NCBI GenBank assembly: GCA_003244205.1
Contig: QHBW01000089.1
Location: 49 to 64,048 of the forward strand
Source of the DNA: Solirubrobacterales bacterium
Lineage (GTDB): Bacteria; Actinomycetota; Thermoleophilia; Solirubrobacterales; Solirubrobacteraceae
Length of the DNA: 64,000 bases
Reading direction: 5' to 3'
This document shows positions 33,361-52,760 of the stretch, piece by piece. Position numbers and translations under genes: made by a program. The number at the start of each line of letters is the position of its first letter. The stretch's first letter is position 1. Below the pieces are notes generated by a model. That model searched no databases. It worked only from the letters and a program-made list of their open reading frames with translations, and was not told the DNA's origin.

Positions 33361-33546
33361 CAGCGCGCGACGGATCGCGGCGCCAGCGACCCACAGGGGC
33401 GCGAGTGCGACCCCGGCCGCAACCAGCCCGACGAGGAAACGCCCGGGCCCGACTACGGCGCGCGCCTCCCAGTGGCCGGAGTCACGCGGCGATTCTATGC
33501 ATCACGCCCGGGCACTCCGGGCGCTACGTCTGGGGTAGGGCCTCCG

Positions 33547-33837: not shown

Positions 33838-33852
33838 GGAGTTTTCTTCCTC

Positions 33853-34275
33853 TCAGAGGTTGCCGTCGCCGTCGCTGGGACCACCGTTGTTGTCGGCGTC
33901 GTGATCCCCACCATTGGCCTGGGGAATGCCGCCGCTCGGCGGGGCCTGGTGCGTGGTGTGCGTCTGCGTATGGGTCGTCGTGTGGGTGGTGGTCTGGGTG
34001 TGCATTGTGATGTGGGTGGGCGGTGCAGGCGGAGTGAAGGACGTCGTCGCTACCGGCGCCGCCGTGGTCGTGCGATGCACGACATGGTGGACCACCTTGT
34101 GCTTGCGCGCGGGTCTCGTGGTCGTCGAGCTGCTCGACGTCGTGCTCGAGGTGGTGGCCGGCGTCGTCTTGGCCGCGGTCGAGCCGCTGGAGCTGGAGCC
34201 GCCGCAACCGGCCGCGATCAGAGCCGTGGCAGCCAAGGCGGGGAGCCAGAGCCATGAGTGGGGAGGGGAGGTCAT
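33853..34275 (-). CDS. small lipoprotein (140 aa), His/Thr-rich, paralogue of 33547..33837
   Basis: ORF 33853..34275. It has the lipobox LIAAGCGGS, the segment HKVVHHVVH...HITMHTQTTTHTTTHTQTHTTH, and the C-terminus SGGIPQANGGDHDADNNGGPSDGDGNL. Confidence 0.65.
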   Translation of the reverse strand: MTSPPHSWLWLPALAATALIAAGCGGSSSSGSTAAKTTPATTSSTTSSSSTTTRPARKHKVVHHVVHRTTTAAPVATTSFTPPAPPTHITMHTQTTTHTTTHTQTHTTHQAPPSGGIPQANGGDHDADNNGGPSDGDGNL

Positions 34276-34392
34276 TTGCTTCGCTTCGCTCTCTGTCGCA
34301 TTGATGTGACTAGCTCCCTTGACGCCGCAACTGGTGCATGCCTTCCCGGTGGGTGCTGGGCGAGCACGGTCGCCCCGGACGGTCGCAGCGCA

Positions 34393-35568: not shown

Positions 35569-36244
35569 CGGGCGTGATCCGGCTTGCGCGGCGAAGGCTA
35601 GCCGCAGCGGCCTGGAAGGCGGCCTGCTGGGCAAGCGTGAAGGAGAAGCCGTACAGCTCGCGGACGCGCGCTGGGATCGTACCCAGCAGCAGCAGGTTCG
35701 CCATCTCGCGGGCCGCGAGCAGGTGACGGGGGAGGGGGATCTCAAAGCAGCTCTGGCGCCCTGCCACCCGGGCGGTGGGGGTGAGCGCGAGGTCATCGCT
35801 GGCGAGGCGCTCGGCCCAGTAGGCGCGAAAGTCCATATAGGTAGGGGGTGCGTCGGCGCGAGACAGGCCGAAGAGCTCGCCGAAGAGCAGGTAGTCCTGC
35901 CAGAGCGCCTCGCGCTCGTCCGCGCTGAGCTTGCGCACGAACGTCTGATACATCGCCTGCCCCGAGTCCGCGATGCAGCCGAGCGTCCAGAGCATCAGGT
36001 CCGGGTCCCACGCGGAGTACGGAGTGCCAGCGGCCCAGCGCCCGGCCGCCACAGGGAGCGTGCCGCGCACGCGCTCGTGCAGCGCGTGCACCGCGGCGAG
36101 CGCGCGGTCGGCTTCGGCGCGCGTGCCGAAGAACACGGTCTCGAAGACCTTGGCCGTTCGCGTCAGGCGCTGGAAGGGCGTCTTCGCGCCCTGGGTGCTC
36201 ATCTCAGTCCCCGTGTACGTGAGCGCGTGGGCGGCGCCGATCAA
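35465..36244 (-). CDS. MpaB/DUF2236-family oxygenase-like protein
   Basis: ORF 35465..36244 starts at TTG. The family-like sequence (IVSDGYFPPERSLLRRVHAERAVGLLYGQRALL) continues in frame up to a TAG at about 36346 without a canonical start (see findings). Confidence 0.7.
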   Translation of the reverse strand: MIGAAHALTYTGTEMSTQGAKTPFQRLTRTAKVFETVFFGTRAEADRALAAVHALHERVRGTLPVAAGRWAAGTPYSAWDPDLMLWTLGCIADSGQAMYQTFVRKLSADEREALWQDYLLFGELFGLSRADAPPTYMDFRAYWAERLASDDLALTPTARVAGRQSCFEIPLPRHLLAAREMANLLLLGTIPARVRELYGFSFTLAQQAAFQAAAASLRRASRITPDALRRGPNTASFNLVARTERDLQRRGKQRATIFA

Positions 36245-36403
36245 CAGCGCCCGCTGGCCGTAGAGCAGGCCGACCGCGCGCTCGGCGTGGACGCGGCGCA
36301 GCAGCGAGCGCTCCGGGGGGAAGTAGCCGTCAGAGACGATGAGACAAATTATGACCTAGGTCGCGGAGGTCGAGGGTCAGCGACCTGCTGCTGCGGGGGA
36401 TCG

Positions 36404-36880
36404 CTACTCCCCGCTGATCGGCGCGAGATGGGCGAGCGCGCTGCGCAGCTGGGCGCTCGTCAGCCGCGGCGGCCCGACAGCCCGCGAGCGAAGGAAGTAG
36501 GTGAAGTCACCTCGCCTGATCGAGCACAGATCGACCCCCGGCGCATGCGTGCAGCCCAAACCACGACCACGAGACGGCTCTCGCCCGAAGACGACGACGA
36601 AGCCGGGTCCCGCGAGCGAGACGCGGTAGTAGACGCCGCTGCGGCGCACACTCGCCGCAACCCCGGGACCGATGACCCAGCGTGGAAGCGCGGGCACGAG
36701 TGCGCGTGGCCTCAGAACGCTGGCGAGCTGCCTGACGGCGTTGGCGGCCGTTGGCGTGCTCGCTGGCAGGCGAGTCGTGGCAGGCGGTCGCCGCGGGCGA
36801 CCGGAGCCCGCCAGCAGCAGGATCGCCGCGGCAGCTGCGACACCGACCAGCAGGGCGGCGAGCAGCCGCGTCCGGCGCAC
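36404..36880 (-). CDS. hypothetical signal-anchored protein (158 aa)
   Basis: GTG 36880 (VRRTRLLAALLVGVAAAAAILLLAG...) lies 17 nt after the ADH stop. It has good GC3. Confidence 0.5.
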   Translation of the reverse strand: MRRTRLLAALLVGVAAAAAILLLAGSGRPRRPPATTRLPASTPTAANAVRQLASVLRPRALVPALPRWVIGPGVAASVRRSGVYYRVSLAGPGFVVVFGREPSRGRGLGCTHAPGVDLCSIRRGDFTYFLRSRAVGPPRLTSAQLRSALAHLAPISGE

Positions 36881-36894
36881 AGCGCGAGCGAAGC

Positions 36895-38001
36895 TCAGCC
36901 GAACTCGATCACGCTGCGGATCCCGTCCTGGGCCTCCATCTTCGCGAAGCCGCTGGTGACGTCGTCGAGCGTGATGCGGTGGGAGATGAATGGGTCGACG
37001 TCGATCTCTCCGGCGACGTAGCGGTCGACCAGCTGGGGCACTCCGTCGCGTCCCTTGACGCCGCCGAAGGAGGAGCCGCACACGCGCCGGCCGGTGATCA
37101 GCAAGCGGGGGACGATGTCGAGCGTCTCTCCCTTGCCGGCGACGCCCGCGACGGTGCACAGCCCCCATCCCATTCGCGCCGCCTCGACGGCCTGGCGCAT
37201 CACGTCGACGCGGCCGGTGGCCTCGAAGGTGTAGTCGGCGCCGAAGCCCCCGGTCAGCTCGAGGATGCTCTCAACCGCGTCTGGGCCACCCGCGAGCGTG
37301 TCGCTCGCGCCCTGGCCGCGAGCCAGCTCACGACGCGGCTGCGAGGGATCGATCGCGACGATGCGCTCGGCCCCGGCGAGCCGGCAGCCGGCCACCACGC
37401 CGAGCCCCACCATCCCGGCGCCGAACACCGCGCAGACCGACCCGGGCTCGACCCGCGCGGTGTTGAGCGCTGCGCCCAGCCCCGTGGAGAGCCCGCATGC
37501 GAACAGGCAGGCACGATCGAGCGGCGCCTCGGGGACGATCTTGGCGAGCGCGATCTCGGGCATCACCGTGTACTCGGCGAACGTCGAGGTCCCCATGAAG
37601 TGGCGGATCGGCTCGCCGTTGCGCGACAGCCTGGTCGTGCCGTCGGGGAGATAGCCACGATTCTGCTGCTCGCGGATCGCCAGGCAGAGGTTGGTGCGAG
37701 GGCTGCGGCAGTGCACGCAGTCGCCGCACTGGGGGGAGAACAGCGTGACCACGTGGTCGCCGGGGGCGACGAGCGAGACATCGGGGCCGACCGACTCGAC
37801 GACGCCGGCGCCCTCGTGCCCGAGCACGGTCGGCGCGTAGCCGGAGGGGTCGGCGCCGGATGCGGTGTAGAGATCGGTGTGGCAGACGCCACAGGCGACG
37901 AGCCTGACCAGCGCCTCGCCCGACGCCGGCTCGGCGAGGTCGAGCTCTGCGACCTGCAGCGGTGCTCCGAACTGCTCGAGGACGGCGGCGCGGATCCTCA
38001 T
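36895..38001 (-). CDS. zinc-dependent alcohol dehydrogenase (class III / formaldehyde dehydrogenase-like)
   Basis: ORF 36895..38001. GVCHTD, GHEGAGVV, CGDCVHC (structural Zn) and GAGMVGLG are present. Confidence 0.9.
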   Translation of the reverse strand: MRIRAAVLEQFGAPLQVAELDLAEPASGEALVRLVACGVCHTDLYTASGADPSGYAPTVLGHEGAGVVESVGPDVSLVAPGDHVVTLFSPQCGDCVHCRSPRTNLCLAIREQQNRGYLPDGTTRLSRNGEPIRHFMGTSTFAEYTVMPEIALAKIVPEAPLDRACLFACGLSTGLGAALNTARVEPGSVCAVFGAGMVGLGVVAGCRLAGAERIVAIDPSQPRRELARGQGASDTLAGGPDAVESILELTGGFGADYTFEATGRVDVMRQAVEAARMGWGLCTVAGVAGKGETLDIVPRLLITGRRVCGSSFGGVKGRDGVPQLVDRYVAGEIDVDPFISHRITLDDVTSGFAKMEAQDGIRSVIEFG

Positions 38002-38066
38002 CGTCTGGCCTCATCGTGTCACGTCCGCGCGGCGGGTTGTGGCCCGCGCCGCCCGAGCGACGATTC

Positions 38067-38099
38067 GGTTTACGCGAGCTTCACAAGTTCTTTACACCG
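38067..38099 (+). promoter_or_regulatory. PHO-box-like site: three 11-bp direct repeat units (GGTTTACGCGA GCTTCACAAGT TCTTTACACCG)
   Basis: The TT(T/C)AC cores at 38069, 38080 and 38091 are spaced exactly 11 bp apart, about 70 nt upstream of the DUF47-pit operon. Confidence 0.4.
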
Positions 38100-38164
38100 C
38101 GGCGGTGGGCTTCGAGCAGGCTTGCTCTCCGGATTCCGGATTCGAGAGCTAGCGAGGGGGACCA

Positions 38165-38791
38165 TTGCCCAGTCTTGCCGCGATCCTCGCGCCGAACGAG
38201 CGCGAGTACTTCGACCTGTTCGAGCGAGCCGGCGCGAACCTCGTTCGCGCCGCCGACCTGCTCAACGAAATGCTCGCAGATTTTCCCGAGCGCGGACACC
38301 TCGCCAGGGAGATCCTGCTGTGCGAGCAGGAAGGCGATCAGATCACCCACGATGTGATCAAGCAGCTCAACCACACGTTCGTCACCCCGATCGACCGTGA
38401 GGACATCTATGAACTGGTCTCGGTCCTGGACGACATCGTCGACTTCACCGAGGAGGTCGCCGACTACCTGGGGCTCTACAAGATCGAGGCCCCGATGGAG
38501 CAGGCCCAGCGCCTGGCGGCAGTCCTGGCGCAAGCCGCTCGCCAGGTGGCCGAGGCACTTACCCACATGCGCGGCTTCAAGGACATCAGCAAGTACACGG
38601 TCGAGGCCCACCGGCTGGAGAACGAAGGCGACCGGATCGTTCGCGAAGCAGTGGCTGCACTGTTCGACGGAGGCATCGATCCAATGGTGGTGATCCGCTG
38701 GAAGGACATCTTCGAGCGTCTCGAGAACGCGATCGACTCGACCGAGCGGGCGGCGTACATCATCGAAGGCATCGTCATCAAGAACGCATAG
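38165..38791 (+). CDS. DUF47 / PhoU-like phosphate transport regulator (YkaA type)
   Basis: ORF 38165..38791. FDLFERAGANL, GDQITHDVIKQLNHTFVTPIDREDI and the EGDRI context are present. It sits immediately upstream of pit, which is the classical pairing. Confidence 0.85.
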   Translation: MPSLAAILAPNEREYFDLFERAGANLVRAADLLNEMLADFPERGHLAREILLCEQEGDQITHDVIKQLNHTFVTPIDREDIYELVSVLDDIVDFTEEVADYLGLYKIEAPMEQAQRLAAVLAQAARQVAEALTHMRGFKDISKYTVEAHRLENEGDRIVREAVAALFDGGIDPMVVIRWKDIFERLENAIDSTERAAYIIEGIVIKNA

Positions 38792-39903
38792 TGCACAGCG
38801 ATCTGCTCATCGTCCTCGTCGTGGGCACTTCGCTCGCCTTCGATTTCACCAATGGGTTTCACGACACCGCCAATGTCGTCGCCACCTCGATCTCCACCCG
38901 CGCGCTGTCACCGCGGGTGGCGATCGCGCTAGCGGCCGTGCTGAACTTCGCCGGGGCGTTCATCTCGCTGAAGGTGGCGGCCACGATCGCCAAGGGCATT
39001 GTCGATGCCGGCGCGATCAGCATGATCATCGTCTTCGCTGGGCTGATCGGCGCGATCGTCTGGAATCTCGCAACCTGGTATCTGGGGTTGCCCTCGAGCT
39101 CATCGCACGCACTGATCGGGGGCGTCGTCGGCGCGTCGCTGGCTGCGCACGGGAGCAGTGGGGTGCACTTCGACGGACTGCTGGGGAAGGTCATCGTCCC
39201 CGCCCTGCTCTCGCCGCTGCTCGCCTTCGCGGTCGCGGGGCTCGCCATCCTCTTCACCTATCGGATGGTTGGGCGACTTCGTCCCGGCCCGGCGAAGCGT
39301 GGCTTCCGTCTTGGACAGGTCTTCTCGGGCGGCATGCTCGCGCTCGCGCACGGGACAAACGACGCCCAGAAGACGATGGGCGTCATCACGCTCGCGCTCG
39401 TCGCCCACGGTGACCTGCCGGGCAAGCACTTCGCGGTTCCCGACTGGGTCGTTGTCTCCGCGGCGTCGGCGATCGCGCTAGGCACCTACGCGGGTGGCTG
39501 GCGCATCATCAGGACGATGGGCTCGCGCATCATCAAGATGGACCCCGCTCAAGGCTTCACGGCTCAGACCGCGGGCGCCACCGTCATATTGGCCGCCTCG
39601 CACGTCGGTTTCCCGCTCTCCACGACCCACGTGATGGCGGGTGGGGTAATGGGGGCTGGAGCAGGCAAGCGCGTGTCCGCAGTGCGCTGGGGCGTGGCCA
39701 GCAACATGGCCATCGCCTGGATCCTCACGCTCCCGGCAGCCGCCGCAGCCGGAGCCGTCACCTACGTCGCCAGCCGCGTCTTTGGCAACGGGGCTCTGGG
39801 TCCATCGATTGTCATCGTCGTGGCTGCTTGCCTGCTTTTGGCAGCCGCAGTACGGCGATCGAATCGACTCGCAGCGCTGCGACCCTCGGGCGTGAGCTCA
39901 TGA
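38791..39903 (+). CDS. pit: inorganic phosphate transporter, PiT family
   Basis: ORF 38791..39903. GFHDTANVVATSI, ALAHGTNDAQKTMGVI and STTHVMAGGVMG are present. Confidence 0.9.
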   Translation: MHSDLLIVLVVGTSLAFDFTNGFHDTANVVATSISTRALSPRVAIALAAVLNFAGAFISLKVAATIAKGIVDAGAISMIIVFAGLIGAIVWNLATWYLGLPSSSSHALIGGVVGASLAAHGSSGVHFDGLLGKVIVPALLSPLLAFAVAGLAILFTYRMVGRLRPGPAKRGFRLGQVFSGGMLALAHGTNDAQKTMGVITLALVAHGDLPGKHFAVPDWVVVSAASAIALGTYAGGWRIIRTMGSRIIKMDPAQGFTAQTAGATVILAASHVGFPLSTTHVMAGGVMGAGAGKRVSAVRWGVASNMAIAWILTLPAAAAAGAVTYVASRVFGNGALGPSIVIVVAACLLLAAAVRRSNRLAALRPSGVSS

Positions 39904-40145
39904 CCGTTGGCGCTGCGATCGTGGACACGCACGCCCTGCTGCAAGTGGTCTATGTGTCGCTGCTCTCCGGGGTTGGTCTTTGCGTCGTCTACGCCGTCGC
40001 GGTGATCGGCATCGCCCGCTCAAACGAGCACCGCAAGGCAAAGCGCACGGGCGCCGCCCTGATCCACGGCGCACTCGCGACGATCGCGGTCGCCGCCTGC
40101 GGCTGGGCGATCTTCACTGGGATCGCGATCATGGCGCAGAAGTGA
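39900..40145 (+). CDS. small two-TM membrane protein (81 aa) coupled to pit
   Basis: ATG 39900 overlaps the pit stop (ATGA). The sequence is MTVGAAIVDTHALLQVVYVSLLSGVGLCVVYAVAVIGIA... Confidence 0.5.
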   Translation: MTVGAAIVDTHALLQVVYVSLLSGVGLCVVYAVAVIGIARSNEHRKAKRTGAALIHGALATIAVAACGWAIFTGIAIMAQK

Positions 40146-40307
40146 GGACGGCGGAGCGCCGTTGGTCCCGTTTTTGGGGTGAGTGTGAGCGGTGAGAGCA
40201 CCGGCGCCTCGTAGCCGGCGAAGCTGGAACGGGTGAACGAGTCGGACGCCGGGCGACTGGTCCCTCGGCCGCTGAGGGGAGTGTTTCTCTCGCGAGGTGG
40301 GACGCGA

Positions 40308-40715
40308 TCAGGGCAGGAGCTGGAATGCCTGGGCATGCGCCGGGCGGACCACCGCGAAGTGGCGGTGGTCGAGCGTAGCGACCTGGTCGATGCTGAGGCG
40401 CTCGGCTGCGGAGACGACCGACGCGTCAACCGTCCCGAGCGGCAGGTCGTGATAGCGGGCTACAAGCTCGGCGATCCGCAACAAGTCGCCCGCGTGCACC
40501 GCAGCGATCGAGAGGTTGCCGCTCGCGAGATCACCGAGAAAGCGGACCTCGGCTTGCCAGCCTATGCGCGTGGCGAGCAGATAGCTCACTTCGGTGATCA
40601 CCAGCGCCGGCACGAGCAGCGGTCCAGGATGTGTCTCGAGCAGCTCCAGGCACTCCGCGTGGTGGGCGTCGTCAGCGTCGACGTAGGCGTACAGCGGCCC
40701 GGCGTCGACGATCAG
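40308..40715 (-). CDS. vapC: PIN-domain ribonuclease toxin VapC (135 aa if initiated at CTG 40715)
   Basis: The track ORF starts at GTG 40613. The in-frame upstream sequence (L)IVDAGPLYAYVDADDAHHAECLELLETHPGPLLVPALVITEV is the PIN N-terminus with its first catalytic Asp. There is no ATG, GTG or TTG upstream up to the in-frame stop. Confidence 0.7.
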   Translation of the reverse strand: MIVDAGPLYAYVDADDAHHAECLELLETHPGPLLVPALVITEVSYLLATRIGWQAEVRFLGDLASGNLSIAAVHAGDLLRIAELVARYHDLPLGTVDASVVSAAERLSIDQVATLDHRHFAVVRPAHAQAFQLLP

Positions 40716-40942
40716 CGCGATCGCGGCGTCTCCGCGTTGATGATCTCCTCGACGCGCTCGGAGATGTCCGCTTGGCCGCTCCCCCCGGCAGCGGCTGCGC
40801 CGAGGCGACGACGCTTCCCGGCGCCGAGGTGATGCTCAAGCGCGGCGCGAGTGATCTCTGCGATCGTGGTGCCGCGAAGGTCCGCCTCGTGCCGTAAGCG
40901 AGCGTCGAGGTCGTCCGGAAGCTTGACGCTTGTACGCTTCAT
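40712..40942 (-). CDS. vapB: ribbon-helix-helix (CopG-type) antitoxin VapB
   Basis: Starts at ATG 40942: MKRTSVKLPDDLDARLRHEADLRGTTIAEITRAALEHHL. The upstream part of track ORF 40712..41041 is read-through of the 13-bp repeat. Confidence 0.75.
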   Translation of the reverse strand: MKRTSVKLPDDLDARLRHEADLRGTTIAEITRAALEHHLGAGKRRRLGAAAAGGSGQADISERVEEIINAETPRSR

Positions 40943-40958
40943 GGTATGCCAGCATACC
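40943..40958 (-). promoter_or_regulatory. candidate VapB operator: palindrome GGTATGC-CA-GCATACC abutting the vapB start codon; TATGCT is a -10-like hexamer on the minus strand
   Basis: It is a perfect 7-bp inverted repeat read directly. RHH antitoxins typically autoregulate through such sites. Confidence 0.35.
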
Positions 40959-40967
40959 AGCGCAGGC

Positions 40968-41058
40968 GGGGGACAACAGCGGGGGACAACGGTGGGGGAC
41001 AACGGTGGGGGACAACAGTGGGGGACAACGGTGGGGGACAACGGTGGGGGACAACAGT
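40968..41058. repeat. 13-bp tandem repeat x7 (GGGGGACAAC[A/G]G[C/T]) directly fused to the 3' end of tRNA-Tyr
   Basis: The units start at 40968, 40981, 40994, 41007, 41020, 41033 and 41046. The variable position runs A,G,G,A,G,G,A, giving 39-bp higher-order periodicity. Confidence 0.95.
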
Positions 41059-41139
41059 GGGGGGAGCAGGATTCGAACCTGCGTAGGCAGAGCCAACGGG
41101 TTTACAGCCCGTCTCCTTTAACCACTCGGACATCCCCCC
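41058..41139 (-). tRNA. tRNA-Tyr (anticodon GUA), class II long variable arm
   Basis: The reverse complement is GGGGGGATGTCCGAGTGGTTAAAGGAGACGGGCTGTAAACCCGTTGGCTCTGCCTACGCAGGTTCGAATCCTGCTCCCCCCA. The anticodon arm is ACGGG-CTGTAAA-CCCGT. Confidence 0.9.
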
Positions 41140-41272
41140 GGGTGGCGGCCGATTCTAGAGCCGGCGGCGCGGCTCGGGTGGCCGTGCGGCGGGCCGGCGG
41201 CCTGCCGCGGTCCGGGGCGCCCCGCCGCGGCCCGGTGCCCGACGCGGCAGCCGGGCCAGTGGCCGGTTGTAA

Positions 41273-41283
41273 TGAATAATTCA
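41273..41283 (+). promoter_or_regulatory. Zur/Fur-type box candidate: palindrome TGAAT-A-ATTCA in an AT-rich island upstream of folE2
   Basis: The context is GTAATGAATAATTCAGCA, about 100 nt upstream of ATG 41383. It is the only AT-rich patch in this intergenic region. Confidence 0.3.
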
Positions 41284-41382
41284 GCACAAGTGGGCTACTG
41301 GGCGCCGACCGGCGACCACCGCGGCGGGCGCCCCGCACCGCGCGCGCAGGACCGCAACACCCCTACCCCTACAGTTTTCCCT

Positions 41383-42405
41383 ATGCCTTCGAGCTCGCAC
41401 CCCGTCGTCAGCCTGGACACCGCCGCCGCCCACCCCGATGTCCAGGCTGGACGTCCGGCCCTTGCGATCGGGCTCTCGCGCGTCGGCATCACCGGCGTGC
41501 GCAAGGTCATTCGCATCAGCCACAACGGCCTCGAGCAGCTCTATTCGGCCCGGATCGAGTGCTTCGTCGACCTCGGCCCGGCGCAGAAGGGCGCCCACAT
41601 GTCGCGCTTCGAGGAGGTTGTCAACGAGGCGATCGGCGAGGTCGTGCTGGGGGAGGCGCCGCTGCGCGCCGAGACGCTCGCCCAGCACATCGCCGAGCTC
41701 GTGCGCGAGCGCCAGCAGGCGCGCCGCGCCGAGGTCACGATCGACGCCACCTATCCGGAGCACAAGCCGGCGCCCGTGTCGGGCATCCTGACACAGGAGC
41801 TCTACGAGCTGCACGGCTCCGCGGTCAGCTCCGCGGCGGGCACGCGGCGGCTGGTCGGGGTCTCGGCCCAGGGCATGACAGCGTGCCCGTGCGCTCAGGG
41901 CTTCGTCGAGACCGGCGCCCGGGATCGGCTCGCCGCCGAGGGCTTCGATCCCGACACGATCGACCGCATCATCGACGCGGTGCCGGTGGCGACTCACAAC
42001 CAGCGCGGCCTCGGCACGTTGCTGATCGGATGCCCCGAGGGCTGCGAGGACGTGGAGCTCGACGCCGCCGTCCTGCTCGCGATCGTCGAGGACTCGATGT
42101 CCTCGGAGATCTACGAGCTGATGAAGCGCTCAGACGAGGCGGCGGTGGTCGAGAAGGCCCACCGCCGCCCCCGTTTCGTCGAGGACTGCGTCCGCGAGAT
42201 GATCGGCGGTGTGCTCGAACGCCTCCCCGTCCTCACCGACGGCGCCTTCGTCTCGGCCCGCCAGGAGAACCTCGAGACGATCCACCAGCACAACGTCGTG
42301 GCCGAGCGCTTCGGGCTCCTGGGCGAGCTGCGCAGAGAGGTGCTCAACGGCGGCGAGTCGCCGGCGCATCACACCTCGATGCGCGAGTGGCTCGACGGCG
42401 CCTAG
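41383..42405 (+). CDS. folE2: GTP cyclohydrolase IB (FolE2/MptA family)
   Basis: Frame of ORF 41272..42405 from ATG 41383. GITGVRKVIRI, QKGAHMSRF, GMTACPCAQ, THNQRG and the ENLETIHQHN context are present. Confidence 0.85.
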   Translation: MPSSSHPVVSLDTAAAHPDVQAGRPALAIGLSRVGITGVRKVIRISHNGLEQLYSARIECFVDLGPAQKGAHMSRFEEVVNEAIGEVVLGEAPLRAETLAQHIAELVRERQQARRAEVTIDATYPEHKPAPVSGILTQELYELHGSAVSSAAGTRRLVGVSAQGMTACPCAQGFVETGARDRLAAEGFDPDTIDRIIDAVPVATHNQRGLGTLLIGCPEGCEDVELDAAVLLAIVEDSMSSEIYELMKRSDEAAVVEKAHRRPRFVEDCVREMIGGVLERLPVLTDGAFVSARQENLETIHQHNVVAERFGLLGELRREVLNGGESPAHHTSMREWLDGA

Positions 42406-42415
42406 CCGTCCCGAG

Positions 42416-42991
42416 CTAGGGCCCGGAGTCCGCGGCTCGCTGCTCGCGGCGGTGCTTCGCGGCCTCGAGCCGGTTGCGCAACCCGAAGGCGTAGTCGGCG
42501 CCGGAGAGCACTGTGACGACCACGGTCGCATAGACGAGCGCGGTCAGCCACGCGGGCTGCGGTCCGGGCACGGCGATCAGCGAGAGCACCATCGCCACCT
42601 GCAGCGCCGTCTTGGCCTTGCCGAAGTTGCCCACGGCCATGATCACGCCGGACTGGGCCGCCGCCATCCGCAACCCGGTGACGGCGAACTCCCGCGCGAC
42701 AACGACCATCGCGACCCACGCGGCGACGCGGTTGAGCGACACGAGCGCCATCAGCGCAGCGATGATCAGCAGCTTGTCGGCCAGCGGATCCAGCACCTTT
42801 CCGAAGCTCGTGATCGACATGCGCGAGCGCGCGAGCCGGCCGTCGAGCAGATCGGTGAGCGAGGCGACCACGAAGACGATCGCCGCGAACAGGTCGCCGT
42901 TGGGCGTCTTGTCGAGCAGCGCCACGACGAGCACAGGCACGAGCAGGATGCGCGCGACGGTGAGGACGTTGGGCAGGTTGAGCGGGAACAC
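42416..42991 (-). CDS. pgsA: CDP-diacylglycerol--glycerol-3-phosphate 3-phosphatidyltransferase
   Basis: GTG 42991. NLPNVLTVARILLVP and the CDP-alcohol motif DLLDGRLAR...GKVLDPLADK are present. Confidence 0.85.
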   Translation of the reverse strand: MFPLNLPNVLTVARILLVPVLVVALLDKTPNGDLFAAIVFVVASLTDLLDGRLARSRMSITSFGKVLDPLADKLLIIAALMALVSLNRVAAWVAMVVVAREFAVTGLRMAAAQSGVIMAVGNFGKAKTALQVAMVLSLIAVPGPQPAWLTALVYATVVVTVLSGADYAFGLRNRLEAAKHRREQRAADSGP

Positions 42992-43026
42992 GGTCGCCCC
43001 TACGCTACCCGCCCAGGCCCGGCTGG

Positions 43027-43638
43027 CTACTGCTGGGAGCAGATCTTCTGCAGTGCTGTTGCAACCGCGGCGTCGCGCGGGTAATAGACGCCGTAGTCCT
43101 TGGTGACCGAGACCGCGAGGCCCGCGGGGGTGACGCCCGGACACGACTGCGGGTTGTCAACCAGCCAGCCGCGCACGAGCCCCTCGCGTGTGCTCTCGGT
43201 GTACGTCTGCCAGGCGTTGCCGCTGACGGCGCTGGCGTTCGCCCCGCCCGTCTCGGGCGCGGACTGCGGGACCTGCGCCCCGCCCGTGTTGGCGGGGGGT
43301 GACGGCGGGGAGGAAGAAGAAGAAGGAGTTGTCGAGCCCTCAGCCGGGGCCGCTGCCGACGGAGCAGTGGCCGTGGACGGTGTCGTGGAGGGGTCAGGCG
43401 CGGTCGGGCTCGACGCAGGTGCCGTCGACTCGCTGGACGGCAGCCGCGACGCCGCGCCCGCGCTCGCCGGCGGGGCGGCCGCCGGCGGGGGCGAGACGGC
43501 CGGGCTCGACGCTGGTTTGCCTGTGTTTCCACAACCGGCGGAGCCGACGACGGCAAGAAGCGCCCAGGCGAGCAGCGCCGAGCGCCAGCGCAGGCGGCGG
43601 CGGACGCGGCGGGCACGGCTGGCGCGGCGCAAGGTCAT
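43027..43638 (-). CDS. lipoprotein with Pro/Ser/Ala-rich linker and small C-terminal globular domain
   Basis: Starts at ATG 43638: [37 protein letters not shown] (lipobox). The C-terminus is [26 protein letters not shown]... Confidence 0.6.
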
Positions 43639-43729
43639 GGGCTCGCATTCGCGCAGAGTGCCCCGTTCCCTGCCGCCGGCAGGTCGCGAGCCGCGGGCCG
43701 GCGAGCGCCGATGTGCAACGCTTGCGGCG

Positions 43730-44311
43730 ATGCCTCTCGTCCCGATGGTGATCGAGCGCAGTGCGCGCGGCGAGCGCGAGTACGACCTCTTCTCGCGGCT
43801 ACTCAACGAGCGCATCGTCTTCCTCGGCAGCGAGGTGGACGACCAGGTCGCCAACCTGATCGTCGCCCAGCTGCTGCATCTCGAGTCCGTCGACCCCGAG
43901 AAGGACATCTCGCTCTACATCAACTCCCCCGGCGGAGGGATCTACGCTGGGCTCGCGATCTACGACACGATGCAGTTCATCAAGCCCGACGTGCAGACGA
44001 TCTGCTTCGGGATGGCGATGTCGATGGGGTCGCTGCTGCTGACGGGCGGCGCCAAGGGCAAGCGGCTCTCGCTGCCCAATTCGCGCATCCTGATCCACCA
44101 GCCCTCGGCGGGCTTCGAGGGCCAGTCGACCGAGATCGAGATCCACGCGCGCGAGATCCTCAACACGCGCCGGCGGATCGACGAGATCTACTCCAAGCAC
44201 ACCGGCCAGACGGTCGAACAGGTCAACCGCGACATGGAGCGCGACCGCTTCTACAAGCCCGCTGAGGCCGTCGAGTACGGCTTGATCGACCGCATCATTG
44301 CTTCGCACTGA
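43730..44311 (+). CDS. clpP: ATP-dependent Clp protease proteolytic subunit
   Basis: Starts at ATG 43730: [33 protein letters not shown] (catalytic Ser), IHQP (His) and RDMERDRF (Asp) are present. Confidence 0.95.
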
Positions 44312-44340
44312 GGCGGGCGGCAGCGGGCGTTAGCGCAGAT

Positions 44341-44402
44341 GCCGCGTATGCGTTGTCGGGCGCCTTAAACGGCAAGAAGACGCCCGCCACCGCATACGCG
44401 GC
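44341..44402. terminator. bidirectional terminator-like hairpin between convergent clpP and FAH genes
   Basis: The 12-bp perfect arms are GCCGCGTATGCG (44341-44352) and CGCATACGCGGC (44391-44402), with further inner pairing (GTCGGGCG / CGCCCG..AC). Confidence 0.5.
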
Positions 44403-44420
44403 CCCTAGCCCCACAACCCG

Positions 44421-45206
44421 TCAGGCCACTTTATGTTCGATGGCGCCTAGGCGTTCGATCTCGATGCGGATTGTGTCGCCGGAGGAGAGGAAGCGGCGCG
44501 GGTCCATCGACATCCCCACACCGCTCGGGGTGCCGGTGAGGATGAGGTCGCCGGCGCGCAAGCTGTGGGTCTCCGAAAGAAATTGGACCAGCTCTTCGAT
44601 CCCGAAAATCAGGTCCGAAGTGCGCGCGTCCTGGCGCTGCTCGCCGTTGACCCACGTCTGCAGGCGCAGGTCGCCGGGATCGGGGACCTCGTCGGCGGTC
44701 GTGATCCACGGCCCGTAGGGGCAGAAGCTGTCGGCGCCCTTGGCGCGGGTCCACTGCGGCTCTGAGCCCTGCAGGTCGCGGGCGGTGACGTCGTCGGCGA
44801 CGCAGTAGCCGCCGACCGCGCCACCCGCGCCGATGACGACCACCAGCTCGCCCTCGTAGTCGAGCCGTCGCACTACGGCGGGGCAGCGCACCGGGCCGCC
44901 CGGCGGCGCCACCGCGGTCGGCACCTTGGTGAAGACGATCGGCTGCGCCGGCGGGTCGACCCCCTGCTCGCGCGCATGCGAGGCGTAGTTGAGCCCGATC
45001 CCGTAGATCGCTCCGGGGTCGGGGACAGGGGCCAGCAGGGTGATCGCCTCGAGCGCGTACTCCGTTCCGTCGGCGATGCCCAGCTCTCCGCCAGCGAGCA
45101 GCTGCTTGACGGTGACATGCTCGGCGAAGGAGACCACGCGTCCGTCGCGGACCTCCCCCGCGAGGGGCTGCTCGGCGTCGGGGGCAAGGAAGGTGGCGAG
45201 GCGCAC
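44421..45206 (-). CDS. fumarylacetoacetate hydrolase (FAH) family protein
   Basis: GTG 45206 (VRLATFLAP...). GIGLNYASHA, LDYEGELVVVIG, DVTARD and the GTPSGVG context are present. Confidence 0.85.
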   Translation of the reverse strand: MRLATFLAPDAEQPLAGEVRDGRVVSFAEHVTVKQLLAGGELGIADGTEYALEAITLLAPVPDPGAIYGIGLNYASHAREQGVDPPAQPIVFTKVPTAVAPPGGPVRCPAVVRRLDYEGELVVVIGAGGAVGGYCVADDVTARDLQGSEPQWTRAKGADSFCPYGPWITTADEVPDPGDLRLQTWVNGEQRQDARTSDLIFGIEELVQFLSETHSLRAGDLILTGTPSGVGMSMDPRRFLSSGDTIRIEIERLGAIEHKVA

Positions 45207-45229
45207 GGGCGAGCCGCAGGCTAGATCAT

Positions 45230-45931
45230 TTGAGCCCGATGCCCGATCGCCCGAAACGCTATGGCGACCGCCGCCGCCAGCGCGACAAGCCCCTGGCAAT
45301 CCGATTCACTGCCGACGATCATGACTTGCTCGGCTGGATCGGCAGGGTCGGCGCCGTTCAGACGGTGCACGTCATGGCCCGCTCTGGCCGCGATCGCCGA
45401 CCCGTGGGCCTTACTTTGCAACGGCTCGCCGAGAACGGGTTCCTCACCAGCGCGCGGCTGCTGTCCGACACGGGTCCCCTATTCGTGGCCACTCGCAGCG
45501 GATTGACGATCGCGGGGCTCGAGTACCTCAACCCCGCCGAGATCTCGATTGAGTCAGCCCACCACCAGATCGCTGTGGCCTGGCTCGCGCTCGAACTCGA
45601 GCGCGAGCACAGCGCCGACCACCTCATCTTTGAACGCGAGCTGCGCGCCGATCCGGGGCATTGGGCGGCGCTTCGCCACCGTCCAGACTGCGTGATCGAG
45701 ACCAGCGCGGACCGCGGCATCGCGATCGAGGTCGAGCTCTCGATCAAGAGCCCGGCCAGGCTCGACGACATCATGCGCGCCTACGCCGGATCCCCCGCGG
45801 TCGACGCTGTCCGCTATTACGCCGGAAACGAGCGCGTCCGCCGCGCGCTCAGCAACGCCGTCGCAAGGACCGGAAGCGAGGCCCTGGTCGAGATTCGCCG
45901 CTGGGAGCGGGGCTTGCGCGCCGGCCGCTAG
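45230..45931 (+). CDS. replication-relaxation family protein (PF13814-like)
   Basis: ORF 45230..45931. It has a wHTH-like N-terminus (LLGWIGRVGAVQTVHVMARSG...LQRLAENGFL) and HHQIAVAWLALELE...PDCVIE...IAIEVELS, which is a restriction-endonuclease-like fold pattern. Confidence 0.6.
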   Translation: MSPMPDRPKRYGDRRRQRDKPLAIRFTADDHDLLGWIGRVGAVQTVHVMARSGRDRRPVGLTLQRLAENGFLTSARLLSDTGPLFVATRSGLTIAGLEYLNPAEISIESAHHQIAVAWLALELEREHSADHLIFERELRADPGHWAALRHRPDCVIETSADRGIAIEVELSIKSPARLDDIMRAYAGSPAVDAVRYYAGNERVRRALSNAVARTGSEALVEIRRWERGLRAGR

Positions 45932-45949
45932 AGGCGGATGATCTCGTGA

Positions 45950-47506
45950 ATGCTGGGCTATCTCGTCGCCGCGGGGGCGGCGCTGCCGGCGGGCTTCGCC
46001 GGCGCCCTCGCGCTGTCCTGGCGCCATTTGCGCTGGACCTGGTCGCTGCCGCTCGCCGCGCTCGGCTTACTCGCGCTCGCCGCCGGGGGCGGACCCTGGG
46101 CCGTGTGGCTGACGCTCGCGTCGATGCTCGCGGGCAGGTGGGCTTTCAGGCGCCACCGGGCCGCACTCGAGCGCGGCGGCGACGCCGCGCGCGCGGAGGA
46201 CAGCGCGATCGGGCCGTGGGATCTGCTGCGCCAGCACACCAACGGCGCAGCGCACAACGGATCCCAAGCGCAGGACAGCTTCTGCCTCGGCCACGACGAC
46301 CGCGGGCACCCCGTGTGGGTCCGGCTGGGATTGGCGGCCGCGCGGCACTTCGTGATCCTCGGCGCAACGGGCTCGGGCAAGACGACCGCGATGGTGAACG
46401 TCCTCTGCGCCCACATCCGCGCGGGGCTGGCGGTGATCGTGATCGACGGCAAGGGCTCGCGTCCGCTGCGCGATCGGCTGGCCGCGCAGGCCGCCACGCT
46501 GGGGCGCGAGTTCATCTGCTGGACGCCCGACGGCGGCGCCCGCTGGAACCCGCTCGCGGGGGTATCGGCTCGCGACGTCGCCGATCTGATGCTCGCCACG
46601 CAACGCTTCAGCGAGCCGCATTACGAGGCGCTCTACCGGCGCTACCTGCACGCGGTGACGCGCTGCCTCGCCGAGACGTGTGCGGGGGCACCGACGCTGC
46701 GCGACGTGATCGCTCTGCTCGAGCCCGACGCGCTCGTGCGTGCCGCGCGTGATGTGGTTGACGCGGGCAAGCGCGCCGAGCTGCTCGCGTATGCCGAGGG
46801 CCTGACGCCCAGCCAGCGTCGCGACCTGCGCGGCCTGGCAGATCGGTTCGCGGTGGTGCTCGAGGCGGGTCCGGGGGAATGGTTGCTGCCCGGAGGGGAC
46901 GGCGATGCGACGCCGGAGATCGACCTCGACCACGTGACGTCGACCGGCGCGGTCGTCTACGTCGGACTCGATGGGCTGCGCTTCCCCGACTTCGCGCGCG
47001 TGCTGGGAACGCTGATGGCCGGCGCGCTGCAGGCCTACTGCGGACAGGTGCAGGCTGGCCGGATCGCGCGGCGTCCGTTCATGATCGCGATCGACGAGTT
47101 CTCACTCGTCTCCGCTGAGATCGTCGCCAATCTCTACGAGCTGACCCGCGAAGCCGCGGCGGGGTCGATGGTGCTCGCCACCCAGGAGATGGCCAATCTG
47201 CGCAAGGTGGCCGCCGGCTTCATGGAGCGGATCCTCGCCAACTATCAGTGCCTCATCGCGCTGCGCCAGAACAACCCCGACTCGGCCGACTTCCTCGCCC
47301 GCAGCGCTGGCACCGAGGACGCGCGCAACGGTCGGGGGCGCGAATTCCTGCAGGGCCCCGACGACTTCCTCCGGCTCGCGAACGGTCACGCCGTGCTGAT
47401 CGACAAGGACCCGATTCGCAGCGTGCGGCTCGCGGTCGTCGATGCGGGACCGGCCGCGGAGGCATCCCCGGTTCAGGGCGCCGTCACGCGCTCGGCGCCG
47501 CTGTAG
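45950..47506 (+). CDS. type IV secretion coupling protein-like ATPase (TraD/VirD4/TraG family)
   Basis: ORF 45950..47506. It has two N-terminal TM helices, Walker A ILGATGSGKT, Walker B FMIAIDEF and the MVLATQEMANL context. Confidence 0.75.
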   Translation: MLGYLVAAGAALPAGFAGALALSWRHLRWTWSLPLAALGLLALAAGGGPWAVWLTLASMLAGRWAFRRHRAALERGGDAARAEDSAIGPWDLLRQHTNGAAHNGSQAQDSFCLGHDDRGHPVWVRLGLAAARHFVILGATGSGKTTAMVNVLCAHIRAGLAVIVIDGKGSRPLRDRLAAQAATLGREFICWTPDGGARWNPLAGVSARDVADLMLATQRFSEPHYEALYRRYLHAVTRCLAETCAGAPTLRDVIALLEPDALVRAARDVVDAGKRAELLAYAEGLTPSQRRDLRGLADRFAVVLEAGPGEWLLPGGDGDATPEIDLDHVTSTGAVVYVGLDGLRFPDFARVLGTLMAGALQAYCGQVQAGRIARRPFMIAIDEFSLVSAEIVANLYELTREAAAGSMVLATQEMANLRKVAAGFMERILANYQCLIALRQNNPDSADFLARSAGTEDARNGRGREFLQGPDDFLRLANGHAVLIDKDPIRSVRLAVVDAGPAAEASPVQGAVTRSAPL

Positions 47507-48249
47507 ACGTTCACGCGGCCCGCGCGCGCGAAACCGCAGAGGGTGATCCCCTGCTCGGCGGCCAAGGAGACCGCGAGCGACGTTGGGGCGCCGACGCCGA
47601 CGAGGAACGGCGCGCCCGCGAGCGCCGCCTTCTGCACGAGCTCGAACGCCAGCCGGCCGCTGACGCAGAGGATGCGGCCCGCGAGCGGCAGCCGCCCCGC
47701 TCGCAGCTCATGGCCGATCGCCTTGTCCATCGCGTTGTGGCGGCCGACGTCCTCGCGTACCAGCTCGAGCTCGCCGTCCGCGCTGAAGACCCCGGTCGCG
47801 TGCAGCCCGCCGGTGCGCTTGAAGCCGGGCTGGACGAGGCGGTCGGGGAGCGCCGCCAGCAGCGAGCGCGAGACGCGCAGCTCCGAGACGACCGCGGCGG
47901 CGACCGAGGCCACCTCGGCGAGCGCTCCCTTGCCGCAGACCCCGCACGACGAGGACAGATAGAAGTCACGCCTCGCCGGCTCGCGCACCAGCGGGCCACG
48001 CACCTCCACCGTGTTGGCGGCGAGGTCGGCGGTGGGGCCAGCGCCCGTCCATTTCCTTATCAATCCCTCCCCGAAGAGGAACCCCGCCGCGAGCTCCTCG
48101 TCGTGGCCCGGCGTGCGCATCGTGACCGCCACGGGGCGACCGTCGACGCGGATCTCGAGCGGCTCCTCGACGGCGACCTCGTCGTCGAGGCCGGCGTGGC
48201 GCACGGCGGCGAGCTGGCCGCGCGTGTGGACGGAGACCGGGGTCGCCAC
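47473..48249 (-). CDS. fdhD: formate dehydrogenase accessory sulfurtransferase
   Basis: ORF 47473..48249. [31 protein letters not shown] and [10 protein letters not shown] are present. Confidence 0.9.
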
Positions 48250-48296
48250 GCCTTGAAGGATGCCCGACCGCGGCGGCCGGTGTCAGGCGCGCCTTG

Positions 48297-49187
48297 TCAT
48301 GCGCCGGGGCTGGCGCCGCCGGCGATCTGCGTGACCGGCGACTGCTTCGGCGCCGCGCCGGCGCCCTGACCGCTGAGTGCGCTGTGACGACCGCGGGCGG
48401 AGGTGTGGGTCGCGGGCGGGGCGCTGGAGGGGATGTGCGTGCCGGGCGGGTAGACGGTCACCACCTGGTTGAGGTATTCGTTGCCGGGGTCGGTGGGGCT
48501 TGCTGGCGGGGAGCGGTAGACGTCGACGTGGCGCCCGACGATCGCCCCTCCCGTGTCCACGGCGGTGAACCAGCCGCGCCCAACCGTGTTGCGGTAGGCG
48601 GCGATGTAGAGCAGCGATCCGAGCGGGATCACGCTCGGGTCCACGGCGACGGTGCGATAGGCGGAGAACGGGACCGACGAGCCCGGCGCGAAGCTGACGC
48701 CCGCAGGCGGCGCAATCGCGCTGACGCCCGCGCCGTTGCTCCAGCCGCCGGCCTGCAGCGGATAGGTGAGCTGGTGGTGCGCGTTGCGCCAATAGCCGCC
48801 CGAACGCCACACCGGGGGACCGTTGGAGAAGCCGCTGCTGGCGTCGGTGGACTGCAGCGCCGCGTTGACCCAGCCCCCAGCGCCGAGATTGTCGATGTGG
48901 TAGTGGCGCCCGTCGAGGCCGATCCCGTCGCCCTCCATCGAAACCCCCGTGGCGGAGTAGAGCCAGTCCACGCGATGCCTTCCTGGCAGCCCCGAGGTGT
49001 TCACGAGCGCGCCCTTGAACCACGACTCGGGGACGGAGAAGTACTCGGTCAGCTGCACCCCGTGCAGCGTCGTGGGCTTCGACAGCGGGCGCGCGGCGGC
49101 GCTCGCCGGGAGCGCAGCAAGCGCAAGGCAGCTCACGACCACCGCGATCCGCCGGGCCGCGCTCGCGCGCGATCTGGTTGAGCGCAT
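48297..49187 (-). CDS. secreted 3D-domain protein (MltA/RlpA-like double-psi beta-barrel)
   Basis: ATG 49187 (MRSTRSRASAARRIAVVVSCLALAALPASAAA). RTVAVDPSVIPLGSLLYI...FTAVDTGGAIVGRHVDVY is present. Confidence 0.75.
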   Translation of the reverse strand: MRSTRSRASAARRIAVVVSCLALAALPASAAARPLSKPTTLHGVQLTEYFSVPESWFKGALVNTSGLPGRHRVDWLYSATGVSMEGDGIGLDGRHYHIDNLGAGGWVNAALQSTDASSGFSNGPPVWRSGGYWRNAHHQLTYPLQAGGWSNGAGVSAIAPPAGVSFAPGSSVPFSAYRTVAVDPSVIPLGSLLYIAAYRNTVGRGWFTAVDTGGAIVGRHVDVYRSPPASPTDPGNEYLNQVVTVYPPGTHIPSSAPPATHTSARGRHSALSGQGAGAAPKQSPVTQIAGGASPGA

Positions 49188-52055: not shown

Positions 52056-52760
52056 TCAGCCTCTCTTGCTTGTTGGTTGGGGCGGTTGGGGCGGTTGGGG
52101 CGGTTGGGGCGGTTGGGGCGGTTGGGGCGCGAGCGCGACGGCGTCCCATGCCGCTTGTGCGAGGTGGCCCTCGGCCCGGCGGATGGAGCTCGCCATTCGG
52201 CCGTGCAGCCAGTGGCGTGCGAACTCCTGAGAGGGCCCGATCAGGATCACGTAGTAGAGGTCGGTCGGCAGCCGTCGGATGCGACCTGCTTCGACGTGCG
52301 CCTTCAGCCAGGCAGCCGTCTGCGAGAACGCCGCGCGATTGAGCTCGTGCACTGTCGATTCGGTGGTCGCGATGACCTCGCTCTCGTGACGATCGAAGAG
52401 AAAGCGGGCGAGGTCGGGGTTGGCGGCGACCCAGCGCAGGTGATGGCGCACCATCGCCCGCGTGCCCTGCTCGGCGTCGGCGTGCAGGCGCAGGGCGGCG
52501 AGCAGTCCCTCGTGGTAGCCCTCGAGCGCAGCGACGTATAGGGCGCCAGCAAGCTGCTCCTTGCCGGCGAAGTGGTGGTAGATCGAGCCCACGCTTGCGC
52601 CTGAGCGCCGGCGTACGTCGTCGATCGTCGTGGCGGTGAAGCCCTGCTCGGTGAAGCACTGGAGTGCGGCATCGAGGATCGCCGCCCGGCGGCGGTCGGA
52701 ATGCAGCTGACGAGTGGAGTGGCCCTGGGAGGGGACGGTCGCAGGCATGAGTAGAAGCAT
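52056..52760 (-). CDS. TetR/AcrR-family transcriptional regulator with (PQP)n C-terminal tail
   Basis: ORF 52056..52760. The HTH is FTATTIDDVRRRSGASVGSIYHHFAGKEQL. The tail APQPPQPPQPPQPPQPPQPTSKRG is encoded by the 9-bp repeat. Confidence 0.85.
   Translation of the reverse strand: MLLLMPATVPSQGHSTRQLHSDRRRAAILDAALQCFTEQGFTATTIDDVRRRSGASVGSIYHHFAGKEQLAGALYVAALEGYHEGLLAALRLHADAEQGTRAMVRHHLRWVAANPDLARFLFDRHESEVIATTESTVHELNRAAFSQTAAWLKAHVEAGRIRRLPTDLYYVILIGPSQEFARHWLHGRMASSIRRAEGHLAQAAWDAVALAPQPPQPPQPPQPPQPPQPTSKRG
52073..52126. repeat. 9-bp perfect tandem repeat x6 (GGTTGGGGC)
   Basis: Read directly. It is in frame within the TetR 3' end, about 23 nt upstream of the hydratase ATG. Confidence 0.95.

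Follow-up and report, generated by a model that had tools for sequence, protein, structure and literature searches.

Two adjacent genes of the forward strand, wedged between a gene for a FAH hydrolase and fdhD, lie within a 64,000-nucleotide (nt) stretch of DNA from a Solirubrobacterales bacterium of the family Solirubrobacteraceae (contig QHBW01000089.1 of assembly GCA_003244205.1, positions 49 to 64,048; hereafter the window). The source genome is a metagenome-assembled genome (MAG) of 2.66 Mb in 100 contigs, 93% complete, in which the window represents contig C14, and the names of homologues point to soil MAGs of the Solirubrobacteraceae and Solirubrobacterales. Gene 1 encodes a candidate relaxase of the MOB_C type and gene 2 an ATPase resembling the type IV coupling proteins (T4CPs); together they correspond to a known kind of unit, in which a relaxase candidate is accompanied by its own coupling protein. 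The genes and sites discussed below, with protein lengths in amino acids (aa), are as follows.

45239 to 45931, forward strand: gene 1, ATG start per public gene calls, 230 aa; MobC/Replic_Relax-like protein
45311 to 45511, forward strand: predicted winged helix-turn-helix (wHTH) DNA-binding domain of gene 1, residues ~25-91, from predicted secondary structure and fold/profile matches
45632 to 45748, forward strand: predicted nuclease active-site region of gene 1 (E132-R-E-L-R, H147-R-P-D150, E164-V-E166-L-S-I-K170)
45932 to 45949, forward strand: 18-nt spacer, in which GAGG is read ~13 nt ahead of the gene 2 ATG
45950 to 47506, forward strand: gene 2, ATG start, 518 aa; VirD4/TraD/DotL-type coupling-protein-like ATPase (T4CP)
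45950 to 46117, forward strand: putative N-terminal membrane anchor of gene 2, two hydrophobic segments by Kyte-Doolittle hydropathy, residues ~1-23 and ~29-56
46361 to 46384, forward strand: Walker A motif GATGSGKT, residues 138-145; the family-invariant G138, G143, K144 and T145 are kept
46867, forward strand: position within a G run (CGGGT) where assembly GCA_036719265.1 (L021/L137) lacks 1 nt, splitting the ATPase into 328 + 207 aa
47081 to 47101, forward strand: Walker B motif MIAIDEF, residues 378-384, with the conserved R400 and T411-Q-E413 downstream
47473 to 47506, no strand assigned: 34-nt convergent overlap of the gene 2 C-terminal tail with the fdhD 3′ end
47473 to 48249, reverse strand: fdhD, convergent with gene 2

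An earlier reading of the window, made from the sequence alone (the sequence-only reading), had described two co-directional genes 18 nt apart, the second overlapping fdhD by 34 nt, and both observations were confirmed (45230/45239-45931 and 45950-47506, with the gap at 45932-45949; overlap at 47473..47506). An alternative TTG start of gene 1 at 45230 would give a forward-strand open reading frame (ORF) of 233 aa (45230..45931). The FAH hydrolase gene is divergent and starts at 45206, so that 32 nt separate its start from the gene 1 ATG. A terminator scan found no terminator-like site between gene 1 and gene 2, and the two genes are probably co-transcribed. The C-terminal tail of gene 2 is poorly conserved, and the alignment with the relative P0004 stops near residue 509.

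The assignment of gene 2 to the T4CPs is clear at the level of sequence. The sequence-only reading had described a VirD4/TraD-like ATPase with two TM helices and the motifs GATGSGKT and MIAIDEF; both motifs were recovered, along with two hydrophobic segments. In the family alignment, gene 2 keeps K144, D382/E383, R400, and Q412, and a check for inactivating Walker substitutions found none, Walker A and B both being kept. It retains 51 of the 63 family positions that are at least 90% conserved, equal to its nearest relatives, P0004 and P0005. R398, a conserved arginine, is replaced by leucine in the window ATPase only. The 17-residue Kyte-Doolittle means of the anchor segments reach 1.76 and 1.64, which is a hydropathy estimate rather than the output of a dedicated predictor; the same N-terminal region is more hydrophobic in P0004 and missing from P0005.

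The curated models divide on gene 2. Pfam TrwB_AAD_bind (PF10412) passes its cut-off (27.1 bits against 20.5), covering residues 131-169 only, whereas TraG-D_C (PF12696) falls below (20.3 bits against 22) and PF02534 reaches only E 0.33. TIGR03743 (SXT_TraD) gives a partial match (E 1e-23, 83.6 bits), below its cut-off of 366. PF10412 and PF12696 are precomputed on most of the gene 2 homologues (n = 74), many of which are labelled TraD or VirD4 at source. In a search of PDB with a profile of 22 family members, DotL/IcmO was matched at E 2.4e-18 over two stretches, which take in the part from Walker B to the C-terminus, and TrwB (2.5e-7), HerA-like YjgR (1.9e-7), and FtsK (3e-6) were also found; a search with the single ATPase sequence mostly matched designed repeat proteins. 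By these profile matches, gene 2 is nearer to the solved T4CPs than to other FtsK/HerA ATPases. Members of the FtsK-HerA superfamily form DNA-conducting rings.

For gene 1, the replication-relaxation family named by the sequence-only reading proved remote but consistent (NCBIfam MobC_subf, E 9e-12; hhalign probability 99.4%, see below), and the relationship to MOB_C/Replic_Relax appears to be remote homology rather than model-level membership. A word-indexed search for gene 1 gave six proteins only, and homologues were therefore gathered from the neighbours of the ATPase genes. Among the 23 obtained in this way, 12 match the NCBIfam MobC model (NF041423) at E <= 1e-3 and only three match PF13814, weakly. 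H109, D150, E164, E166, K170, and R174 are invariant in the alignment of gene 1 with these homologues, and E132 occurs in the window protein and in at least 90% of the homologues; E164, E166, and K170 fall in the motif IAIEVELSIK (residues 161-170). The AlphaFold2 model of gene 1 (pLDDT 91) consists of a wHTH (helices 25-37, 42-49, and 53-65, strands 69-72 and 81-84) followed by an alpha-beta-beta-beta-alpha-beta domain. Foldseek and hidden Markov model (HMM) matches of the wHTH region are to MarR/ArsR-type wHTH proteins. In a fold search with the whole protein, wHTH matches and spurious methyltransferase alignments predominated, and the C-terminal domain was therefore modelled on its own (pLDDT 90); for this model, the top three PDB folds are EcoT38I, NucS, and Can2, all PD-(D/E)xK nucleases, at modest E-values of 2e-3 to 3e-2. 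Replic_Relax has been placed in the PD-(D/E)xK superfamily (Steczkiewicz et al.; PMC3424549), and PF13814 is the MobC relaxase family of CONJscan (PMC5357655). The sequence-only reading saw no relaxase near the pair, which must be revised, as Replic_Relax/MobC is the MOB_C relaxase family and gene 1 itself is the relaxase candidate.

The same pair of genes is found on plasmids. In a tblastn search of the ATPase against PLSDB, the best plasmid matches were annotated T4CPs on small plasmids. On pCCELLA01 of Carboxydocella thermautotrophica (CP028515.1; CTH_10018/CTH_10017) and on a 21.8-kb plasmid of Brachybacterium huguangmaarense (BRM3_RS15010/RS15005), the partner gene lies directly upstream of the T4CP gene, the same order as in the window, with a 4-nt overlap at the junction in the former and a 62-nt gap in the latter. 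The gene 1 family aligns with both plasmid partners over the full length (hhalign probability 99.4%; E 2e-21 and 4e-21), and these partners share the H / ERExR / PD / ExExxxK motifs with the window family profile. Identity to the plasmid pairs is low (25-29% for the ATPase, 23-27% for the partner), and both are plasmid-borne, unlike the window pair. The Brachybacterium pair is followed by genes annotated for conjugal transfer and a large ATP-binding protein. MOB-suite types pCCELLA01 as mobilizable with a MOBC relaxase, a typing that would refer to the gene 1 homologue, given that no other relaxase is annotated on the plasmid, and calls the Brachybacterium plasmid non-mobilizable. pCCELLA01, the closest plasmid homologue, also carries a complete-looking Tad/Flp pilus cluster at 33126-48545 (CpaF, TadB/C, TadE, prepilin peptidase) and no annotated VirB4-type type IV secretion system (T4SS).

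Two characterised systems resemble the window module. In the CloDF13 module, the MobC relaxase (MOB_C family) is accompanied by its own coupling protein, MobB. The window module likewise appears to be a two-gene unit of a small restriction-endonuclease-like relaxase-family protein beside a membrane-associated Walker A/B ATPase, and in both cases mating-channel genes are absent from the module itself. In contrast to CloDF13, the window module is chromosomal, has neither a plasmid replicon nor a recognisable oriT, and lacks a helper T4SS in its genome; different lineages inherit it at fixed sites, and it is remote from the curated MobC models. TraX of pAD1 is the founding restriction-endonuclease-like MOB_C relaxase; its gene adjoins a coupling-protein gene on a Gram-positive conjugative plasmid, and it acts at a defined oriT of a complete conjugative plasmid. 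Gene 1 would share with TraX a predicted fold class and a conserved acidic/lysine active site.

Among integrative mobilisable elements (IMEs) and mobilisable plasmids, the relaxase of the rare ones that encode a VirD4 coupling protein of their own is of the MobC/PF13814 type (PMC5704250, PMC5357655). Streptococcal IME_Class_8 combines a VirD4 coupling protein, a PF13814/MobC relaxase, and a serine integrase (Coluzzi et al., 2017; PMC5357655). The window pair is similarly compact and consists of the same two protein families, and the full trio is carried by L017 and L020 of the window's own family, mobile-looking versions in which a large serine recombinase accompanies a Replic_Relax-like partner and a T4CP. 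The window copy differs in that it lacks an integrase/excisionase, attachment-site repeats, and foreign composition, and is not mobile-island-like.

The features expected of an IME or an integrative conjugative element (ICE), namely integrase/excisionase genes, attachment-site repeats, and foreign composition, are absent from the locus. No integrase-family (recombinase) Pfam domain occurs in the 20 flanking ORFs scanned (36.9-57.1 kb), no serine-recombinase homologue occurs in the whole genome, and flanking direct or inverted repeats are at chance level only, with nothing convincing; the sequence-only reading was thus correct that neither an integrase nor flanking direct repeats lie nearby. 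Its view of the flanks as housekeeping genes also holds (ClpP, FAH, FdhD, 3D-domain protein, SDR, NUDIX). The GC content of the pair is 0.71 against 0.69-0.70 in the flanks, GC3 (GC content at third codon positions) is normal in both ORFs (0.84 and 0.89), and the divergence of their codon usage from the genome mean ranks at the 22nd-23rd percentile. The k-mer comparison proposed by the sequence-only reading was carried out, and tetranucleotide composition is unremarkable, at the 56th percentile for the genome. A sigma-70 promoter scan found nothing above chance, consensus scans being of little value at 70% GC.

At the same locus, eight assemblies that represent essentially one organism share the arrangement of FAH, pair, and fdhD. 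Seven have a pair identical to that of the window; six of these span the whole 518-aa ATPase gene, while the contig of L143 ends at 46869. A far more distant relative, Logan contig L134, has the order ClpP, FAH, partner, ATPase, and fdhD, with flanking proteins 83, 67, and 75% identical and pair proteins 41 and 47% identical; neither frame is interrupted, and every motif is present. On JGI contig L135, a full-length ATPase (45% identical) is preceded by the end of a partner gene. FAH is kept nearby at only two of 29 fdhD loci, both in family genomes without the pair. A clean empty FAH-fdhD site was sought in relatives and rejected in both candidates, and since these sites hold other small genes in the gap, the boundaries of the insertion are undefinable. 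Taken as a whole, the evidence from the window and its relatives excludes both a recent insertion of the pair and its simple decay.

The wider family places the pair at other fixed sites. Among 151 genomes of the Solirubrobacteraceae, in which homologues were called at E <= 1e-20 and close homologues at E <= 1e-45, 27 genomes in 14 of 51 genera have a homologue, and gene maps cover ~45 loci. Two further fixed chromosomal sites hold close homologues, one upstream of maoC-hrcA-dnaJ (type B) and one between dagK and relA (type A2). The type B order is TetR, a giant Replic_Relax-domain protein, an HTH-like protein of about 300 aa, sometimes an OmpR-type wHTH protein, T4CP, partner, single-stranded DNA-binding protein (SSB), and sometimes SRAP, followed by maoC-maoC-hrcA-dnaJ-prmA; SSB is always present at this locus, and the giant second Replic_Relax-domain protein often. 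The type A2 order, found in several other genera, is PALP, dagK, a secreted protein, partner, and T4CP, with convergent relA-recJ. The ATPase has diverged in step with the flanks (Spearman 0.55 with HrcA at type B and 0.57 with RelA at A2; Mantel p <= 0.005), and ATPase and partner co-diverge at 0.77, figures that are inflated by some duplicate genomes. The recurrence of the pair as a two-gene unit in these other chromosomal contexts favours the self-contained module of the sequence-only reading over simple decay.

Several further observations concern the homologues. The type B block is present in many Solirubrobacteraceae genera (L060:2296-12023, L016:2875-12082, L023:8043-12884, and ~25 more loci); its giant protein measures 630-1530 aa, with a Replic_Relax domain near residue 1000-1120 as the sole recognisable part, and its HTH-like protein (280-420 aa), which no Pfam model matches, is conserved at its HTH-like C-terminus. 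At L018:8465-10489 and L069:9035-11062, both on the reverse strand, single ORFs of 674-675 aa appear to be in-frame T4CP-partner fusions. In L018, the ATPase match covers residues 71-358 and the partner nuclease domain 531-647; L069 belongs to the ATPase cluster and is read as a fusion from its ORF length only. Fusions of this kind in nature imply that both proteins work within a single complex. At two loci, the pair or an ATPase with an 85-aa ORF directly adjoins restriction genes, which are an MmeI-like type IIL enzyme and a DEAD-box helicase at L056:4387-11633 and a type I HsdR at L068:798-6413.

Within the window genome itself, the A2 site is empty, relA and dagK being convergent and 12 nt apart (contig C75:1566-4799), and no type B block of the hrcA-type locus is found. 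A decayed second copy is present on contig C82 (C82:1140-2113 and C82:6037-6426), consisting of a 129-aa partner fragment and two ATPase fragments (227 and 97 aa) that lack the Walker A region; the fragments lie ~4 kb apart, and the gap holds two forward-strand ORFs of 534 and 282 aa. Around the pair, the neighbours from PhoU-like/PHO4, vapBC, FolE2, and CDP-alcohol phosphatidyltransferase to ClpP and FAH are of housekeeping type, and FdhD, 3D-domain protein, SDR, NUDIX, PNPOx, ECH, TetR, and a two-component system follow. The idea of an island that would begin at the tRNA-Tyr/vapBC region (~41 kb) and extend to the pair was rejected, as housekeeping genes lie in between and relatives preserve the ClpP-FAH synteny whether or not they carry the pair. 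An inverted repeat at 44341-44402 (26-nt arms, 88% complementary, 10-nt loop) lies where the convergent ClpP and FAH genes meet, in the gap between their 3′ ends, and is probably their shared bidirectional terminator.

It is proposed that the pair descends from a MOB_C relaxase/T4CP mobilisation module, has long resided intact in the chromosome, and is maintained by selection, a proposal we consider about equally likely to be right or wrong. The homology, the gene order, the intactness of the genes, their fixation in the chromosome, and the lack of a cognate T4SS in the genome are observed. Both frames had been judged intact from the sequence, and the catalytic and Walker residues are indeed kept. 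The window copy would have lost, or never kept, the integrase of the ancestral module. Gene 1 may bind a specific DNA site through its winged helix and cut or nick it with the restriction-endonuclease-like active site, after which gene 2, as a membrane-anchored hexameric P-loop motor, would take the nucleoprotein complex and pump DNA. Nicking, DNA substrate, pumping, and exit route are thus all predictions of the model. Since the genome lacks a VirB4-type channel, transfer would need a T4SS in trans, supplied by conjugative elements circulating in the family; helper channels exist there, as VirB4-like genes are found in 18 of the 151 family genomes (~12%). The outcome would be a mobilisation of chromosomal DNA resembling that of high frequency of recombination (Hfr) strains.

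A number of results weigh against this proposal. Gene 1 has no Pfam match, PF13814 being absent at E <= 1, and its MobC_subf (NF041423) match scores 44.8 bits against a curated cut-off of 200. No oriT-like direct or inverted repeats were found in or beside the module, which is nearly devoid of non-coding DNA, the two spacers measuring 32 and 18 nt. No VirB4 was detected in the 93%-complete genome, by TIGR00929 at E <= 1e-5 or by tblastn with four family VirB4-like proteins, which extends the absence seen by the sequence-only reading within several kb to the assembled MAG; in an assembly of 100 contigs this absence is not absolute. A VirB4-like match occurs in only four of the 21 genomes with close homologues, and three of these matches are short ORFs covering the P-loop half of the model only; a module dependent on so rare a helper would be hard to keep under selection for so long. 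In five of the six genomes with more distant homologues VirB4 is present, in G002 at 12 kb on the same contig. Gene 2 lies on a long branch between the two main clades of its family (1.73 against a median of 0.37). Both genes evolve at about twice the flank rate, with NG86 dN/dS values of 0.62-0.72 against 0.29 for FAH; as dS is saturated and synonymous sites are GC3-biased, these values serve as a relative comparison with FAH only, and show only that the pair is under weaker constraint than this neighbour. The ATPase of L134 (L134:1940-3124; 394 aa) begins just ahead of Walker A, without the hydrophobic N-terminus, and may be either a soluble variant or a decaying one. Lastly, one of the eight near-identical assemblies has the frameshift at 46867, which may be an assembly error because the MAGs hold other 1-nt indels; the same comparison shows a 1-nt indel at 39673, as well as a 9-bp repeat-unit difference at 52075-52083 in the tail of the TetR gene.

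The rare helpers, the fixed chromosomal sites, and the SSB-containing locus keep open a function owned by the host and independent of a T4SS. It would consist of DNA translocation, whether export, donation, or uptake, through the membrane ring of the ATPase itself, the cell having co-opted the pair, joined at the hrcA locus of relatives by SSB and further partners. FtsK-like TraB, which moves DNA in Streptomyces conjugation, offers an analogy. The fixed sites are shared across genera and the pair co-diverges with their flanks, most carriers lack VirB4, and pCCELLA01, the closest plasmid homologue, has a Tad pilus cluster and no annotated VirB4-type T4SS. The constant SSB and frequent giant protein of the hrcA-type locus, together with the place of the ATPase in a superfamily established to form DNA-conducting rings, point the same way. 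Opposed to this are the limited distribution (27 of 151 genomes, 14 of 51 genera), which argues against a core function, the absence of the accessory genes from the window copy, the missing anchor in the ATPase of the same-locus relative, and the relaxed constraint; in addition, no T4CP is known to work without a channel. Such a takeover by the host is regarded as unlikely. Slightly less probable still is a specific form of it, in which several uncultured soil lineages of the Solirubrobacteraceae would have adopted a plasmid relaxase/T4CP module as a VirB4-free device for DNA export, donation, or import, with the ATPase ring as the conduit, the SSB, HTH-like, and giant Replic_Relax-domain proteins of the hrcA locus cooperating, and the window pair as the minimal form.

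The sequence-only reading had also offered the pair as the last remnant of a decayed ICE. This stands as to origin, given that deeper homologues occur with serine recombinases or in VirB4-bearing genomes, and fails as to the present state. As an inert leftover of an integrative mobilisable or conjugative element, the pair would be drifting to loss, and the missing integrase, T4SS, and accessory genes, the clearly decayed second copy on C82, the frameshift in one assembly, the R398L substitution with the long branch and high dN/dS, and the patchy family distribution are all consistent with this. However, two same-locus lineages whose pair proteins are 41-47% identical have both preserved open frames and every catalytic residue; by calculation, a stop would be expected about every 60 codons in random sequence of 72% GC. 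In GC3 and codon usage the pair is like expressed host genes, seven of the eight assemblies agree with the window (six of them across the whole gene), and the C82 remnant illustrates how real decay presents itself in this genome. A self-contained module is favoured over simple decay, and an inert leftover is improbable.

Uptake, plasmid exclusion, or defence, likewise raised by the sequence-only reading, found nothing specific in support. An anti-plasmid or anti-phage pair would combine a wHTH nuclease effector with a FtsK/HerA-like ATPase as activator or sensor, or act as an exclusion device. The PADLOC mad8 model matches the ATPase over nearly its whole profile (E 6e-14), and of the eight-gene mad operon only mad8 was matched, by the ATPase alone. 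MAD7/MAD8 has been described as an ATPase-nuclease module required for defence (PMC13662399). The resemblance of the window pair to MAD7-MAD8 and HerA-nuclease systems lies in the combination of a FtsK/HerA-superfamily P-loop ATPase with a nuclease partner, and the fast evolution of both genes, the two homologous pairs beside restriction genes (L056 and L068), and the existence of a soluble ATPase variant would also fit. The mad8 lead was set aside: the profiles for MADS derive from alignments made with HHpred/PDB, no PADLOC model recognises gene 1, and the similarity is probably generic to T4CP/FtsK proteins. With no other mad genes nearby among housekeeping neighbours, only two of ~45 loci adjoining defence genes, a T4CP-type anchor on the ATPase, and the closest characterised relatives by sequence and gene order being conjugation or mobilisation modules, defence is the least probable of these explanations.

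A MOB_C relaxase with its own coupling protein is the textbook mobilisation unit of plasmids and IMEs. What is new here is such a unit without an integrase, oriT-like repeats, or a transfer channel, kept open at three fixed chromosomal sites in a widespread soil actinobacterial family, where it co-diverges with its housekeeping neighbours. It also carries a caution for annotation, as Pfam misses divergent MOB_C-like proteins and MOB-suite called the related Brachybacterium plasmid non-mobilizable. If the pair depends on helpers, chromosomes of this family would hold permanent Hfr-like origins of transfer, able to make use of conjugative elements that pass through; if it is owned by the host, a coupling ATPase could do useful work without a T4SS. 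Either answer would bear on gene flow in uncultured Actinomycetota and on the role of "orphan" coupling proteins.

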